Assembly: GCA_947589055.1 (NCBI GenBank)
Contig: CANPZL010000001.1
Span: 58,697 to 122,696, forward strand
Direction: 5' to 3'
Length of the DNA stretch: 64,000 nt
Source: an uncultured Lachnospiraceae bacterium
GTDB lineage: Bacteria > Bacillota > Clostridia > Lachnospirales > Lachnospiraceae
This document shows, in pieces, positions 1 to 13,858 of this stretch (position 1 is the stretch's first letter; every line of letters starts with the position of its first letter). Under the pieces are notes generated by a model, which saw nothing but the letters and a program-made list of their open reading frames with translations, was not told the DNA's origin and did not search any database. Position numbers and translations under genes: made by a program.

Positions 1-787
1 GCCTCGGTGGAAGGTCAAATTCACAAAAAGTCAGACGGATTCGCAGCCAATACTTATTTTCAACTTCATGAAGCCCTGTAGCTGCTTGCCAGTAAATAAA
101 GCCGCTCTGTAAAAATCCATGGGTTTCATCCGTCAAAACAGTACATTCATTCCATATATCACCATCCCAGTATTCCAATCGGTAATCAGAAAAATGAGGA
201 TCTTCACCTGCTATAAATGGATTTCGTTTTTCTCCTTTTGGTTCCTCCAGTATCCAATAGAGCGCATGAACCTGTTTTTCCTGAACAGGCCGGTCAAAGC
301 CTATAAAAAAGCAATCCCCCGCCTGCGGCTTCTCTCCGAACATCCATTTTCCGAACCGAATATCTTCTGAAGAAGCCCGCCACAACAGCCTTCCATCTGC
401 TTTCTGTACATAACAATCCTGTATCTTTTCTCCATCAAACCAAATGGCCCTTTCTGGTTCAAAACAAAAGTCCTCTGTATAAAATCCGGTATTTTTATGT
501 ATCTTTACAGGTTCTGGTTCCAACAGTTGAACAACAATTTCCGACGGAGAGCGTTTTGTCGGTTCCACGCCTAACAGTTCCAGATACAAAGCTTCATTTT
601 CCATTCCGTTTTGTTCAAGGTAAAAACGCTGCATTTCCTGTAACCAAGAAAACAACTCCAGCAACACAATTCCAGAATCAGAAGGATTGTAATCGGTCCA
701 TTCCTTTTGATATTTTCCAATACTGTCTATCGCTTTATTTAATATGGTATCAAAGCTTTCATCATCTAATGAAAAAACCGGTAGCAT
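1..787 (-). CDS. Baseplate-J-like wedge protein, second paralog (Afp11/Afp12 position); only the N-terminal 262 aa are in the window
   Basis: This ORF is absent from the ORF track because it has no stop in the window. I translated the minus strand by hand from the ATG at 787, which has an AAGGAGA RBS 7 nt upstream: MLPVFSLDDESFDTILNKAIDSIGKYQKEWTDYNPSDSGIVLLELFSWLQEMQRFY... I checked that no in-frame stop occurs down to position 2. The N-terminus parallels that of the 998-aa neighbour (TPEWKFHSLFPDSGSVLMHIYADML). Confidence 0.7.
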   Translation of the reverse strand, partial: MLPVFSLDDESFDTILNKAIDSIGKYQKEWTDYNPSDSGIVLLELFSWLQEMQRFYLEQNGMENEALYLELLGVEPTKRSPSEIVVQLLEPEPVKIHKNTGFYTEDFCFEPERAIWFDGEKIQDCYVQKADGRLLWRASSEDIRFGKWMFGEKPQAGDCFFIGFDRPVQEKQVHALYWILEEPKGEKRNPFIAGEDPHFSDYRLEYWDGDIWNECTVLTDETHGFLQSGFIYWQAATGLHEVENKYWLRIRLTFCEFDLPPR

Positions 788-831
788 ATTCTTGTCTCCT
801 TTTTCATATGGCAGGATCCGCCTTTTATTTC

Positions 832-3828
832 TTAATGTATATCATTGCTGTCCAATTCAAATTGTATTTTATGCACTCCACTGATTATCATTTGATAATC
901 CGGAATTTTCCCTTCCAGATCAATTTCTTGCAGTCCTCTGCTGTTATGGCAATACGCTTTGATCATCAGCGTTTGAATGCTTTCGATTCCATGTACATCC
1001 CGAAGTACATTTCGGATCTGTTCTCGATTCGGTGCTGTTCCGATCTCCCAGCCTCTTCCGTCTGAATTTCCAGTCAGCGGATTTAAAAACCGTATCAGCT
1101 TTTCTTCTGCTTCCGCCCTGCACTGAAATACAGATTCACGCCCTTTTAATAAACAGACAGCCGATACTTGTATTTCCGTAAACCAAGGCGGAACAATATA
1201 TAAATGCTTCTGTAAATGGGAAATACCAGGCATCCGTTCCAAAATATAGTCTCGAAGCTGTTGTTGCAGACTCTGAAAATCCGTACTTCCTTCTTGATAG
1301 TTTTCCTGTAATACTACCAGTGTAACGGCTCCCCGCTGTAATTCCCCCGCTCCGTTTCGATTAGCATATGCCTTTACCTTTGCCACCTCTCTGGCCGCTT
1401 CTTTTGCCAAAGCTTCATAATCTGAAAGCATTACCGCCCGTTCCCGGTGCAAAAGCCTGGCAGAAGTCCGTTTGACAGCTTCTTCCGGAAGTTCAGCATC
1501 CCGTCCTCCTGTCAAAGAAAAACGATTGGTAATTTGATTCAGAAACCGAATGGAACGATCCAGATGTGTCACCTGCCCGGCTTTTAAATTTCCCTGGCTG
1601 CCTCCTCCCCAGGTATATTGTACCCGGATCCCTTTTTCGAGATTCGGCCTAGGGATCCTTCCCTGCCCGGCCTTTGGGAAAAATAATTTTCCTTCCCTTC
1701 TATCCAGCCGATAATGCCGATCATCCGGTTCTGTTTTTCCAAAATCTTTTACCTCCGTCCAAAGCACCCAGATTTCCCTTTGATGACCTTCTGTCTGAAT
1801 ATAATCGACTTCATTCTCGTCTTCTATCTTTTCCAGTTCCTTCGATGAAAGTCCGGTCTCATTCACCCATACCGAGATTTGGACTATGCCTTCGTGCTTA
1901 AGCTGAAAAAATGCGTCAGTGTCCTGACTTCGCATGGTAAAAAACTCTTCCGGTACGGTTTCTGCTGCTAAGACGGGAACTGTATTGAACCACAGCTCCC
2001 GTACCGGGATCATTGAAGCTGTTCTTTCCTCCGAGGCTCCTGATAACCGAACGAATCTTATCCAGTAGAGCTTCTTTCCAAATAACTGTTTTTGTTGAAA
2101 TCCCTGATTGCCAAATGGCATTATCACTCCGTTTTTTGTTAAATTCTCTGTTTCGTCCTCTAAAACAAGGCTTCTCCATTCCCGCCCATTAAAAAATTCA
2201 TAATTCCATTTATCTCCGACTGCCGGTACTTCTCTTCGTGGAATACCGCAATATAAGCCAAAGGGGCCGCCTTCTAATGGCTGATTAAAACCTATATAGA
2301 CCGCCGGCCTCATTTCCCTCAGGGATTGAAAGGGTGTAAACGCTTTCCCATTTTTCCTCCATTGTTCTTCCAGATTATTATAAAATCCCATTATCTCTGG
2401 ATTTTTCATAACAGGTTGATAATCATAAGACAATTCTACCCGGTTCAAAAAGGGCGTCAGATAATATCCGTATCTGGTAAATTCGTTATACATTTTAACA
2501 ATCCGGATCCGTATACAATAAATCGTTTGTGCATTTACTAAAATAGGACTTATATCCTCCGGACAGGTAAAGGTAATATTTAGTATCTTCTCCTGACCTT
2601 CCTCTTGTTCCGGCCGAAATCCGTCAATGTATAAGGGTTCGGAAAACAATCTGGTAAAACCAACACCATTATAATATTCCCAAGCCACTTCACCTACGGT
2701 AACTGCACGAACTTCCTCCTTTGGAAAATCGGATTCCTTCATGACCGTTTTCCACTGGATTGGCTGAGGAACAGGCTCAATCAGCAGATCTGTTTTCCGA
2801 AATTCCATGCTTAATGAAAGTTTTATCACAGCGCCTTTTTTCCCAAATACCTCATTGGAACAAAGAAAACATTCTCCAAAGAGATAAGGACGCTCCCCAA
2901 AGGGATAGCAGCGACTATTCGCTTCCTGTCCGTCTGCTGTATAAATGAACTCCGGTTTTCGCTCTCTGCCTGTAGAAGCAAGCAATATCTCCTGAAACTC
3001 AAGGCCTGTATATGCTTGTATATCTTTTGCCTGCCATTTTAAAAAACAGCTGGTTTCTCCTCCCTGCCAAACCGATTGAAATTCCGGCATTTCTTCTGAC
3101 TTATGAAGCGTTAATATATTCCCTTCCAGCCTCCAATCTGAGAATTCCCTTTCTCCATCAACGGAAATATAGGAAAAACTTGTCTTTTCCCGATCCGACA
3201 CTACTTCCTTCCAATCCTTTCGATACCCTCTGTATAACAGTAAAATATGAATATCCGCTTCTCCCAAGTCGGAAAAAACCGTTGCGTGTCCAATCCAACA
3301 GATATGCTCCTGAAGATTCTGCAAATTGGAGACCGCCAGCACCCCTTCTTGTTCCGCTAAGCAGCAGATGCGGTCGGCAGTTCCCTCGATATAAAAGACA
3401 GATTGTATTTCCCCCGTACTAACCAGAATATCCTTTTGCGTTTCCAAACGCACCTGTTCATCCTCATCCGTCGTACCAAGTATCCCGGTTCCAATCGGAA
3501 CTTCTGCATCACCCAGATCAGTGCTTGCCATCCCCAAAGAAACATATCCTCTCGCCGGTTCTCCGGAACGCTGCTCTGTTCCAATGTATTGAAAAAATTG
3601 CATTTTATCCCGCTCTAAAAGCCGATTATAGCGGTGAATGGTATCCATAAGCATATCTGCGTAGATATGCATCAGTACAGAACCAGAATCTGGAAACAAA
3701 GAATGAAATTTCCATTCCGGCGTGTATGCTTTTGCCAGTTCTTCCATCTGACGGATCAGGTCATTTTTCGTTCGTTCATCTAATAGAATGGGTCGTATTT
3801 CCATTTTCTGCCACATTCCTTCCCGCAT
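832..3828 (-). CDS. Large baseplate-J-like wedge protein (Afp11 / T4 gp6 / P2 gpJ-like)
   Basis: 998 aa. The N-terminal region has a baseplate-J-type motif. The C-terminal region (..GGRDAELPEEAVKRTSARLLHRERAVMLSDYEALAKEAAREVAKVKAY..) is typical of gpJ-family baseplate assembly proteins. The ATG lies 10 nt after the hub gene stop. Alternative in-frame ATGs at 3816 and 3804 are possible. Confidence 0.8.
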   Translation of the reverse strand: MREGMWQKMEIRPILLDERTKNDLIRQMEELAKAYTPEWKFHSLFPDSGSVLMHIYADMLMDTIHRYNRLLERDKMQFFQYIGTEQRSGEPARGYVSLGMASTDLGDAEVPIGTGILGTTDEDEQVRLETQKDILVSTGEIQSVFYIEGTADRICCLAEQEGVLAVSNLQNLQEHICWIGHATVFSDLGEADIHILLLYRGYRKDWKEVVSDREKTSFSYISVDGEREFSDWRLEGNILTLHKSEEMPEFQSVWQGGETSCFLKWQAKDIQAYTGLEFQEILLASTGRERKPEFIYTADGQEANSRCYPFGERPYLFGECFLCSNEVFGKKGAVIKLSLSMEFRKTDLLIEPVPQPIQWKTVMKESDFPKEEVRAVTVGEVAWEYYNGVGFTRLFSEPLYIDGFRPEQEEGQEKILNITFTCPEDISPILVNAQTIYCIRIRIVKMYNEFTRYGYYLTPFLNRVELSYDYQPVMKNPEIMGFYNNLEEQWRKNGKAFTPFQSLREMRPAVYIGFNQPLEGGPFGLYCGIPRREVPAVGDKWNYEFFNGREWRSLVLEDETENLTKNGVIMPFGNQGFQQKQLFGKKLYWIRFVRLSGASEERTASMIPVRELWFNTVPVLAAETVPEEFFTMRSQDTDAFFQLKHEGIVQISVWVNETGLSSKELEKIEDENEVDYIQTEGHQREIWVLWTEVKDFGKTEPDDRHYRLDRREGKLFFPKAGQGRIPRPNLEKGIRVQYTWGGGSQGNLKAGQVTHLDRSIRFLNQITNRFSLTGGRDAELPEEAVKRTSARLLHRERAVMLSDYEALAKEAAREVAKVKAYANRNGAGELQRGAVTLVVLQENYQEGSTDFQSLQQQLRDYILERMPGISHLQKHLYIVPPWFTEIQVSAVCLLKGRESVFQCRAEAEEKLIRFLNPLTGNSDGRGWEIGTAPNREQIRNVLRDVHGIESIQTLMIKAYCHNSRGLQEIDLEGKIPDYQMIISGVHKIQFELDSNDIH

Positions 3829-13770: not shown

Positions 13771-13810
13771 TGAAGCTTCCTCCCCTCTCGCAATTCAGCG
13801 TAATTTATTT

Positions 13811-13858
13811 ACTATACAGCATTTGCCACAACATTTTCCCAACATTTTACAAACATCG
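13811..13858 (-). promoter_or_regulatory. Candidate activator-dependent promoter of the eCIS operon: TATAGT -10 preceded by 3-4 direct repeats at about 11-bp spacing
   Basis: The minus strand reads tcgATGTTTGtaAAATGTTGggAAAATGTTGtggcAAATGCTG-TATAGT. On the plus strand the repeats are cagcatttg 13817-25, caacatttt 13829-37, caacatttt 13840-48 and a degenerate caaacatcg 13850-58. The -10 is actata at 13811-16. There is no TTGACA-like -35 (ggaaaa at 17-nt spacing). The ATG lies 41 nt downstream of the -10. Confidence 0.45.

Follow-up and report, generated by a model that had tools for sequence, protein, structure and literature searches.

The window analyzed here is a 64,000-nucleotide stretch of DNA from an uncultured Lachnospiraceae bacterium (GenBank assembly GCA_947589055.1, contig CANPZL010000001.1, positions 58,697 to 122,696 of the forward strand), and its minus strand carries a contractile injection system (CIS) locus at positions 1 to 13770. 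Judged by its genes, this locus is confirmed as a member of the extracellular CIS (eCIS) superfamily and not a prophage; each of the named parts is supported by Pfam, PHROGs, and PDB-sequence searches. The best explanation for the observations as a whole, to which we give a probability of about 0.75, is that the window holds the promoter-proximal ~55% of a ~25-kb chromosomal CIS locus that belongs to eCIS lineage II, is most like subtype IIa, and resides in a Lachnospiraceae-like gut Clostridium. An earlier reading of the letters and translations (here called the sequence-only reading) had proposed an eCIS-type locus in a Clostridia chromosome beside core metabolism, and both the family matches and the housekeeping genes that flank the locus bear this out. 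CIS of Gram-positive bacteria have barely been studied, with only the Streptomyces system characterized, and a locus of this kind raises the question of how such a phage-tail-like machine can operate in a cell with a thick wall, whether from behind it or through it.

Structural genes and flanks of the locus

The cluster comprises 13 tightly packed genes, all on the minus strand, as are all of the locus features whose coordinates are given below. The genes within the window encode, among others, a sheath, an inner tube, an Afp5-like initiator and a LysM-containing Cis7-like initiator, a gp27-like hub, two gp6/Cis11 paralogues, a Cis15-type ATPase, and a DUF4157 protein. The profile searches that the sequence-only reading had suggested as a check returned the expected families throughout (sheath, tubes, hub, CIS_tube, Baseplate_J, AAA, DUF4157, and BTAD), and nearly all of its part labels stand. 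Its "chaperone-like pair" can now be described as a 123-amino-acid open reading frame (ORF) that matches PHROG 508 plus a DUF6760 ORF in the -1 frame. Its count of 14 genes, on the other hand, was one too many, since the NTPase and SARP "genes" are the two halves of a single frame.

The sheath (the Cis2/Afp2-4 equivalent; positions 7579 to 9315) is a 578-amino-acid protein that matches both Pfam Phage_sheath_1 and Phage_sheath_1C at E ~1e-19. In the PDB its matches are led by Halogeometricum Cis2 (9EZM; E 1e-132) and Streptomyces Cis2 (E 4e-114), with weaker matches to Pvc2 and Afp2-3 (1e-48 to 1e-54), pyocin (1e-14), and T4 gp18 (~1e-8). Compared with sheaths from CIS loci, it shows 42 to 44% identity (E 1e-108 to 1e-126). 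This is nearer than any of 50,697 phage records, the closest of which is the sheath of Bacillus phage BCD7, at 35% identity and an E value of 3e-48. Based on this comparison, we reject the possibility that the locus is a defective prophage tail module or an R-type tailocin of the PBSX or diffocin kind, an explanation that we regard as barely credible. It is true that the order of sheath, tube, chaperone pair, small coiled-coil protein, LysM protein, gpD-like hub, and Baseplate J resembles that of a Firmicute myophage or PBSX tail and that there are PHROG tail-protein matches and a YQBQ match. However, the locus also has a Cis15-type ATPase and a DUF4157 protein and, in relatives, a Pvc16 cap; it lacks lysis, head, integrase, and repressor genes; its composition is that of the chromosome; and the match to a diffocin baseplate protein is marginal. 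No family of capsid, portal, terminase, integrase, or holin proteins was found among the locus ORFs in Pfam or PHROGs, which agrees with the earlier statement that capsid, portal, terminase, lysis, and integrase ORFs are absent. There is likewise no lysis cassette in or next to the locus, either in the window or in the complete relatives, and Rfam gave no match inside the locus.

The inner tube (the Cis1/Afp1 equivalent; 7137 to 7559; 140 amino acids) matches Phage_T4_gp19 at E 1e-42 and a PHROG annotated as tail tube. A second gp19-type tube paralogue of 134 amino acids (6142 to 6546; Pfam gp19, E 2e-13) has Afp5, Streptomyces 9GTP chain a, and Pvc5 as its top PDB matches and is the Afp5/Pvc5/Cis1b equivalent, which forms a tube-initiator layer. 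The other initiator, equivalent to Afp7/Cis7/Alg7 and ending in a C-terminal LysM-like domain (4905 to 5543; 212 amino acids), matches CIS_tube at E 3.5e-34 and, in the PDB, Alg7 (1e-19), Cis7 (4e-16), All3321 (1e-15), and Pvc7/Afp7 (~2e-4 to 3e-4). Between the two initiator genes lies a gene for a charged protein of 194 amino acids (5557 to 6141) that is coiled-coil-looking by eye. This protein has no Pfam or PHROG match, nor did lenient Pfam searches give it a credible family. It is kept at 182 to 194 amino acids in all relatives and shows no similarity to the 182-amino-acid ORF at the equivalent Halogeometricum position. The gene occupies the position of a tape-measure or plug gene, and it is by position only that such a role is suggested.

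The hub (3838 to 4884; 348 amino acids; Pfam YQBQ, E 8e-7) is gp27/gpD-like and corresponds to "Cis8a," the N-terminal half of a split Afp8/VgrG. It aligns with residues 30 to 344 of Alg8 and with residues 36 to 344 of a VgrG, that is, with the gp27-like N-terminal part only, and in relatives the gp5-like OB spike has a gene of its own. The hub ORF as such extends from 3838 to 4995, and its start is probably at 4884 because the gene calls of conspecific contigs give a protein of 348 amino acids. Next come two Baseplate-J/gp6 wedge genes. The long one, Cis11a (Afp11/Cis11 copy a; 832 to 3828; 998 amino acids; Baseplate_J, E 1.7e-11), has an N-terminal extension of ~680 amino acids and matches Streptomyces Cis11 (1.5e-36) and Alg11 and All3317 (~1e-8) in the PDB. 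Lenient Pfam searches found no credible family for its N-terminal 700 amino acids, and an exact look-up of the 998-amino-acid sequence gave no match. The second paralogue, Cis11b (1 to 787), runs off the left edge of the window after its N-terminal 262 amino acids. This fragment alone has no Pfam match, and the paralogue was recognized by a family profile, which matches Streptomyces Cis11 (5e-26), T4 gp6 (~1e-7), and, marginally, a diffocin baseplate protein (E 0.036). The full-length protein has 676 amino acids in the conspecific contigs L012 to L016.

At the promoter-proximal end of the locus lies the gene for an AAA+ ATPase (9407 to 11494), which matches Pfam AAA (E 1.7e-28) and the PF22977 WHD. 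It is the equivalent of Afp15/Pvc15/Cis15, proteins of assembly and cargo loading, and is 39% identical over 292 amino acids to the ATPase of the Halogeometricum borinquense pHBOR03 CIS. The first gene of the locus encodes a DUF4157/eCIS_core protein of 120 amino acids (13408 to 13770; PF13699, E 1.2e-9) with an HExxH motif (HELGH) and 29 to 32% identity to DUF4157 regions of the pHBOR03 locus. The gene is present in the conspecific contigs and in the related locus L001 and is absent from L002. DUF4157 has been linked to toxins in eCIS (PMC8213781), and the Halogeometricum DUF4157 proteins are secreted in a sheath-dependent manner (PMC11566945); the 120-amino-acid protein is a candidate cargo or cargo adaptor. 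Among related loci, this small gene is present in the group with a tal/PFK context and absent from the group of L002 to L004.

The right boundary of the locus is as sharp as had been claimed, with tal at 14030 to 14686, followed by a gene with an LPG_synthase_C domain and then by PFK. The remainder of the window is ordinary chromosome and includes genes for GH3, glutamate synthase, DnaE, UvrC, FtsH, CTP synthase, and two tRNAs. The locus and its surroundings do not differ in GC content or skew. The 5' neighbors are tal and PFK for the window, L001, and L012, and ClpX-like, PGM, and QueC genes for L002 to L004. A recent horizontal acquisition finds no support in composition, although relatives occupy different chromosomal contexts.

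Lineage and the genes beyond the left edge

The locus most likely belongs to eCIS lineage II, and within it is most like subtype IIa, because it has two Afp11 copies and a split Afp8 and because its best matches are to the Halogeometricum and Streptomyces systems. Subtypes IIa and IIc are defined by two afp11 copies, and subtypes IIa to IIc by an afp8 that is split into gp27 and gp5 ORFs (PMC6899500). Both marks of IIa are found, in the form of two Cis11 paralogues and of a gp27-like hub in the window with a separate Phage_base_V gene in relatives, and both are common to IIc. The Halogeometricum system is itself placed in clade IIa, and its nearest Cis11 relatives are in Bacillota (PMC11566945). 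For the same reasons, the earlier assignment to the "Afp/PVC/MAC class" has to be replaced by lineage II. Two of the points against our overall interpretation concern placement and extent. The placement in IIa is one of best hits and synteny rather than of a tree, and the cap, gp25, spike, and PAAR-like genes were observed in relatives only and not in this genome.

Gene by gene, the locus matches the plasmid-borne pHBOR03 CIS (the archaeal "T6SS," for type VI secretion system; 9EZM; PMC11566945), a likeness that extends to both tubes, a gpV spike with its own gene, one long and one short Cis11 paralogue, a Tail_P2_I-related protein, and DUF4157 proteins. Identity to the pHBOR03 counterparts is 42% for the sheath, 41% for DUF6760, 36% for the LysM initiator, and 26% each for the hub and Cis11b. 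Cis11a is 28% identical over 669 amino acids to the 1064-amino-acid haloarchaeal Cis11a, and the gp25 and gpV proteins of relatives are 43% and 27% identical to theirs. The gene arrangement differs. In pHBOR03, the hub and Cis11a genes are separated by those for the spike, PAAR, and gp25, and the second tube gene is followed by those for the cap and ATPase, whereas here the ATPase gene is upstream of the sheath gene and, in relatives, gp25, spike, and DUF4280 are at the 3' end after the cap. The clostridial lineage has DUF4280 where pHBOR03 has a PAAR protein, and it adds an NTPase-BTAD regulator and MORN, HAMP, and ~285-amino-acid proteins. The envelopes also differ, with a thick peptidoglycan wall here and an S-layer in Halogeometricum.

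The cytoplasmic CIS of Streptomyces coelicolor (CIS-Sc; 8BKY, 9GTP; PMC12237407) provides the second-best sheath match and the best solved match for both Cis11 paralogues. The LysM initiator and the Afp5-like tube match this system strongly as well, and its host is likewise Gram positive. Unlike the lineage described here, CIS-Sc has one Cis11 gene (with two copies of the protein per wedge), a contiguous VgrG-like Cis8, no fibers, and no recognized tape measure. Afp, PVC, and MAC (lineage I) and AlgoCIS have the same core parts at the profile level (sheath, Afp1/5, Afp7, Afp8, Afp11, Afp15, Afp16, and DUF4157) but are much more distant (sheath, ~1e-50; Afp7, ~3e-4). They differ in having one Afp11 accompanied by Afp12, an unsplit Afp8, three paralogous sheath proteins, a large tape measure (Afp14), and an ATPase and a cap at the 3' end. 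Their hosts are Gram negative, and their extracellular release has been demonstrated.

The sequence-only reading had called the operon "complete-looking," a description that does not hold, because the window lacks the cap, gp25, the tip of the gpV spike, and the PAAR-like protein. It had also expected a cap, a fiber, and further genes beyond the left edge, and such genes are indeed found there in conspecific and related contigs. The conspecific set consists of 11 metagenome contigs that carry an exact copy of the 194-amino-acid protein (by exact look-up). They are 98.9 to 99.7% identical to the window at the nucleotide level over up to 16.1 kb, have the tal/PFK flank in common with it, and have equal gene lengths apart from the regulator. 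Past the left edge, they contain the rest of Cis11b (676 amino acids in all), a Tail_P2_I protein (363 amino acids), and proteins of 583 and 288 amino acids. The conspecific contigs fetched reach ~5 kb beyond the window edge and end before the cap and gp25.

The order of the remaining genes can be seen in L006, L007, L008, and L020: Cis11a, Cis11b, Tail_P2_I, a ~584-amino-acid protein, a ~285-amino-acid protein, a MORN-repeat protein, and a Pvc16_N cap. After the cap there is sometimes a gene for a protein of 205 to 261 amino acids, and then come a HAMP-domain protein, GPW_gp25, a Phage_base_V spike, and DUF4280, which we take to be PAAR-like. These features of the 3' part, from MORN to DUF4280, were noted at 18231 to 22702 in L006, 15821 to 21809 in L007, 16649 to 22019 in L008, and 12632 to 17987 in L020. 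Even L018 and L019 (~29% identity) retain Cis11a, Cis11b, Tail_P2_I, the 584-amino-acid gene, MORN, and the cap. We infer that the missing half of the locus lies beyond the left edge in the same order as in these relatives and would consist of the rest of Cis11b, Tail_P2_I, the ~583-amino-acid protein (fiber- or TssK-like), the ~285-amino-acid protein, MORN, the Pvc16/DUF4255 cap, the HAMP protein, gp25, the gpV spike, and the PAAR-like DUF4280. Housekeeping genes or AgrB flank the complete relatives, and the genes 3' of these loci, such as AgrB, are unrelated to the system. In L008, AgrB (quorum-sensing peptide processing) is at 22099 to 22704, directly after the last CIS gene.

Several of the proteins of this 3' half have no assigned family. 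The ~583-amino-acid protein follows Tail_P2_I and has a C terminus that is Ig-like by eye; a scan of viral contigs found no relative of it. The HAMP protein between the cap and gp25 has a C-terminal domain of ~280 amino acids without a family. Lenient Pfam searches produced no credible family for the 583-, 285-, and 261-amino-acid proteins or for this C-terminal domain, and as these searches gave no support to the idea that the domain is cyclase-like, we dropped it. A simple hydropathy scan predicts one C-terminal membrane-spanning stretch in the ~285-amino-acid protein, one N-terminal stretch in the MORN protein, and two in the HAMP protein.

A sheath search indicates how widely related loci occur. 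The best 120 of at least 8000 candidates were all at least 71% identical to the query, and the named matches among those listed came from Lachnospiraceae, Acetatifactor, Lachnoclostridium edouardi, Intestinimonas, and Flavonifractor, with Oscillospiraceae and gut-named metagenome-assembled genomes as well. The lineage is apparently common in gut Lachnospiraceae and Oscillospiraceae, in contrast with surveys that found eCIS to be depleted from mammalian gut microbiomes or gut CIS to be almost only in Bacteroidota (PMC8213781, PMC12210884). The gene set is a recognizable member of an already catalogued eCIS subtype. BTAD, LysM, and Tail_P2_I are eCIS shell domains, DUF4157 is the core marker, and a toxin from a Ruminiclostridium eCIS has been tested (PMC8213781); a 2026 catalogue describes eBAP3 fibers with Tail_P2_I adaptors in Bacillota (PMC12923769); and subtype IIb loci have been reported in Acutalibacteraceae (rumen preprint). 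The sequence-only reading had thought a Firmicute locus of this kind uncharacterized. This is not so for cataloguing, since loci with BTAD, LysM, and Tail_P2_I are already on record (PMC8213781, PMC12923769), and it holds for experiment, in that we found no experimental study of any Bacillota CIS in the literature searched.

Regulator gene, candidate operators, and candidate frameshift site

Where an NTPase gene and a separate SARP regulator gene had been described, there is one 624-amino-acid regulator gene split by a TAG codon (positions 11512 to 13386). From the N to the C terminus, its product would contain a P-loop STAND-type NTPase, a MalT-type winged helix, an OmpR-type winged helix-turn-helix (wHTH), and a BTAD (SARP) domain. 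The BTAD match, in 11512 to 12330, is above the Pfam cutoff (E 2.5e-12), and the Trans_reg_C (E 0.0015) and AAA_22 matches are weak and under the cutoffs, so that the wHTH is a weakly supported assignment. A protein search with the N-terminal half returned three distant matches only. Compared with AfsR-type large SARPs, the domain order is reversed, with the NTPase and MalT-type WHD N-terminal and the wHTH-BTAD C-terminal.

The TAG is in frame at 12412 to 12414 (codon 325) and cuts the NTPase sensor half off from the half that would bind DNA through wHTH-BTAD. The regulator of the closest relatives is one protein of 605 to 626 amino acids with WHD_MalT and BTAD. The 626-amino-acid regulator of L001 is 62% identical and colinear over 13386 to 11512 and has Gln at the position of the window's stop. 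The two conspecific contigs that cover the site, L012 and L013, both have an intact 624-amino-acid ORF with a CAG codon. The TAG is therefore one C-to-T nonsense change (CAG to TAG) in this strain, or else a sequencing error. Because the DNA-binding half of the activator lies past the stop codon, the locus in this strain is probably poorly expressed or non-inducible. Two considerations weigh against this expectation: the TAG could be the sequencing error just mentioned, and the wHTH-BTAD part, if translated separately as a C-terminal fragment, could retain its activating function. A pyrrolysine or read-through TAG was considered and rejected, as TAG is the ordinary stop codon of the 123-amino-acid ORF and conspecific contigs carry CAG.

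SARP/OmpR-type activators bind heptameric direct repeats that are ~11 bp apart and overlap the -35 region. A direct repeat of this form, TGTTAAG-N4-TGTTAA, with heptamers 11 bp apart, is found at 9396 to 9412, where it overlaps the ATPase stop codon. The repeat at the ATPase/sheath junction reads TGTTAAGTGTTTGTTAA and is followed by a -10-like TAAATT, ~80 nucleotides upstream of the sheath ATG. The TGTTAAG repeat occurs as a single exact copy in the window, and each of the 13 fetched loci that span the junction has it there once and only once, on the coding strand. We consider it a candidate SARP box for the promoter of the structural genes. At 13830 to 13855, inside the 259-nucleotide gap upstream of the DUF4157 gene, TGTT occurs three times in 11-bp phase; this arrangement is unique in the 64-kb window (0.00 expected from shuffles), and comparable phased TGTT(A) repeats precede the first gene of the locus in L001 and L002. 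The three TGTT repeats are a candidate operator for autoregulation of the DUF4157-regulator-ATPase unit.

The NTPase-wHTH-BTAD protein may activate both of these repeat-bearing promoters. It has the BTAD domain and the weak Trans_reg_C match in common with SARP-family activators, along with heptamer repeats 11 bp apart immediately 5' of a -10-like element. A consensus scan for promoters and terminators, which counts against the overall interpretation though it was uninformative in itself, was not above chance, with 20 sigma-70 sites compared with a shuffle mean of 27.7.

The 123-amino-acid ORF (6743 to 7114; PHROG 508, E 4.4e-7) encodes a tail-assembly-chaperone-like protein with a C-terminal CxxC...CxxC zinc-ribbon-like end and shares 53% identity with the positionally equivalent ORF of the haloarchaeal locus. 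The DUF6760 frame (6567 to 6767; Pfam DUF6760, E 8e-18) is in the -1 frame relative to it. Seven codons before the stop of the 123-amino-acid ORF, at 6761 to 6767, there is a candidate slippery heptamer, A_AAT_TTT, in the context GTA AAT TTT; the candidate frameshift region as a whole spans 6730 to 6794. We rate it an even bet that a G/GT-like -1 programmed frameshift fuses the 123-amino-acid ORF to DUF6760. In favor of frameshifting, all eight distinct relatives have the GTA AAT TTT nonamer and the -1 arrangement without change even though the proline codon in front of the nonamer varies (CCT, CCA, CCG, and CCC), and there is no ATG, GTG, or TTG between the upstream stop and the start of the DUF6760 domain. 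What speaks against frameshifting is that a TTG or ATG occurs 27 to 36 nucleotides upstream in the -1 frame of every locus (with no obvious ribosome-binding site) and that the archaeal DUF6760 orthologue has its own ATG, in an ATGA overlap. In addition, a hairpin, GCCGGA...TCCGGC at 6730 to 6754, 6 nucleotides 3' of the heptamer, does appear in the minimum-energy fold, but the stability of the fold around the heptamer does not significantly exceed that of shuffled sequences (z of -0.88). A Deinococcus plasmid locus was uninformative on the DUF6760 arrangement, and the literature searched makes no mention of DUF6760 or of a chaperone frameshift in CIS.

Directly upstream of the heptamer, at 6768 to 6788, there is also a 7-bp hairpin, GCAGGAG...TTCCTGT, with an AGGAGG Shine-Dalgarno-like sequence, and a GGAGG is present 7 to 13 nucleotides upstream of the heptamer in most, but not all, relatives. 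In dnaX, a Shine-Dalgarno-like sequence stimulates frameshifting. The hairpin here could act in the same way, or it could be a coincidence. As experimental handles, the locus offers a natural regulator knockout (the TAG) beside intact conspecific alleles, a conserved candidate operator, and the candidate frameshift site.

Mode of action and neighboring genes

With the steps of the cycle taken from established knowledge of the CIS family, the locus would operate as follows. The regulator would switch on particle synthesis by binding the TGTTAAG repeats at the sheath promoter and the phased TGTT repeats before its own operon. The hub and spike would seed the assembly of six wedges, built from both Cis11 paralogues and the Tail_P2_I protein, and the Cis7-like and Afp5-like initiator layers would adapt the hub to the tube. 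Tube and sheath would then polymerize, possibly aided by the 123-amino-acid/DUF6760 pair, and be closed by the cap, with the ATPase aiding assembly and cargo loading. When the sheath contracts, the tube and spike would be driven across a membrane together with DUF4157-linked cargo.

Sequence alone does not decide among the possible modes of action, and the window covers only the 5' half. Of the three modes weighed below, which leave a small share of probability to others, none is better than even. With odds somewhat short of even, our tentative preference is for a particle that is tethered to the producer's cytoplasmic membrane and fires outward, by analogy with the haloarchaeal system, which is bound to the cytoplasmic membrane and kills by contact (PMC11566945). 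We lean to a cell-associated mode because there are three conserved proteins with predicted membrane-spanning stretches and no lysis genes. The other close characterized system, that of Streptomyces, is cytoplasmic, requires the membrane protein CisA, and causes cell death (PMC12237407). The label "eCIS" given by the sequence-only reading is thus right as to superfamily; "extracellular" is unproven, the two closest characterized relatives being membrane bound or cytoplasmic (PMC11566945, PMC12237407). Three points weigh against tethering. The Gram-positive wall is thick; the ORFs fetched from upstream of the pHBOR03 cluster, where its membrane protein would be expected, showed no similarity; and there is a fiber-like gene 3' of Tail_P2_I, which in Bacillota has been read as encoding receptor-binding fibers (PMC12923769).

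That last point also bears on a free extracellular CIS of the Afp, PVC, or AlgoCIS kind, which would assemble in the cytoplasm, be released by lysis of the producer, bind by its fibers, and inject a payload. We find such a particle plausible, though we would not wager on it. Within the window, the pair of tube paralogues, the Cis15 ATPase, and the DUF4157 protein speak for it, as do the Pvc16 cap in relatives and the succession of a Tail_P2_I adaptor and a ~583-amino-acid gene with an Ig-like-looking C terminus, and extracellular targeting has been argued for Bacillota eBAP3/Tail_P2_I (PMC12923769). However, Tail_P2_I and eBAP3 also resemble the T6SS connectors TssG and TssK (PMC12923769), and the nearest characterized systems are not extracellular (PMC11566945, PMC12237407). 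The lack of a lysis cassette in or next to the locus, in the window and in complete relatives, and the three conserved locus-encoded proteins with membrane-spanning stretches predicted by the hydropathy scan likewise argue against release.

The same membrane proteins could instead act in a CisA-like manner (PMC12237407), in a Streptomyces-type cytoplasmic CIS that fires inside or against its own membrane under stress, in regulated cell death or development. CIS-Sc is the top solved match of the Cis11 paralogues and the second for the sheath, LysM initiator, and Afp5-like tube, and here too the host is Gram positive and there are no lysis genes. Nevertheless, we think this mode quite improbable. 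CIS-Sc has no fibers and a single Cis11, whereas the lineage here has Tail_P2_I and a fiber-like gene, a split Afp8, and two Cis11 proteins; the sheath is nearer to that of the haloarchaeal system; and no CisA homologue turned up, in an analysis that included no search aimed at CisA.

Membrane tethering could also be put in a more specific form: a membrane-tethered, contact-dependent, T6SS-like weapon of Gram-positive gut anaerobes, anchored or triggered by the MORN and HAMP proteins, activated by the NTPase-SARP protein through TGTTAAG, and orthologous to the haloarchaeal system. We consider this full version unlikely. If it is true, Bacillota would have their first T6SS-like mode of action, and this in a lineage largely missed by published gut surveys.

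Elsewhere in the window, three proteins unrelated to the locus were noted. A 985-amino-acid protein encoded on the minus strand at 21403 to 24360 has Reg_prop/Y_Y_Y beta-propeller sensor repeats fused to HD/HD_5 (HD-GYP-like). The other two are a DUF2130 protein at 19367 to 20617 and a 950-amino-acid Sel1/TPR repeat protein at 42439 to 45291.

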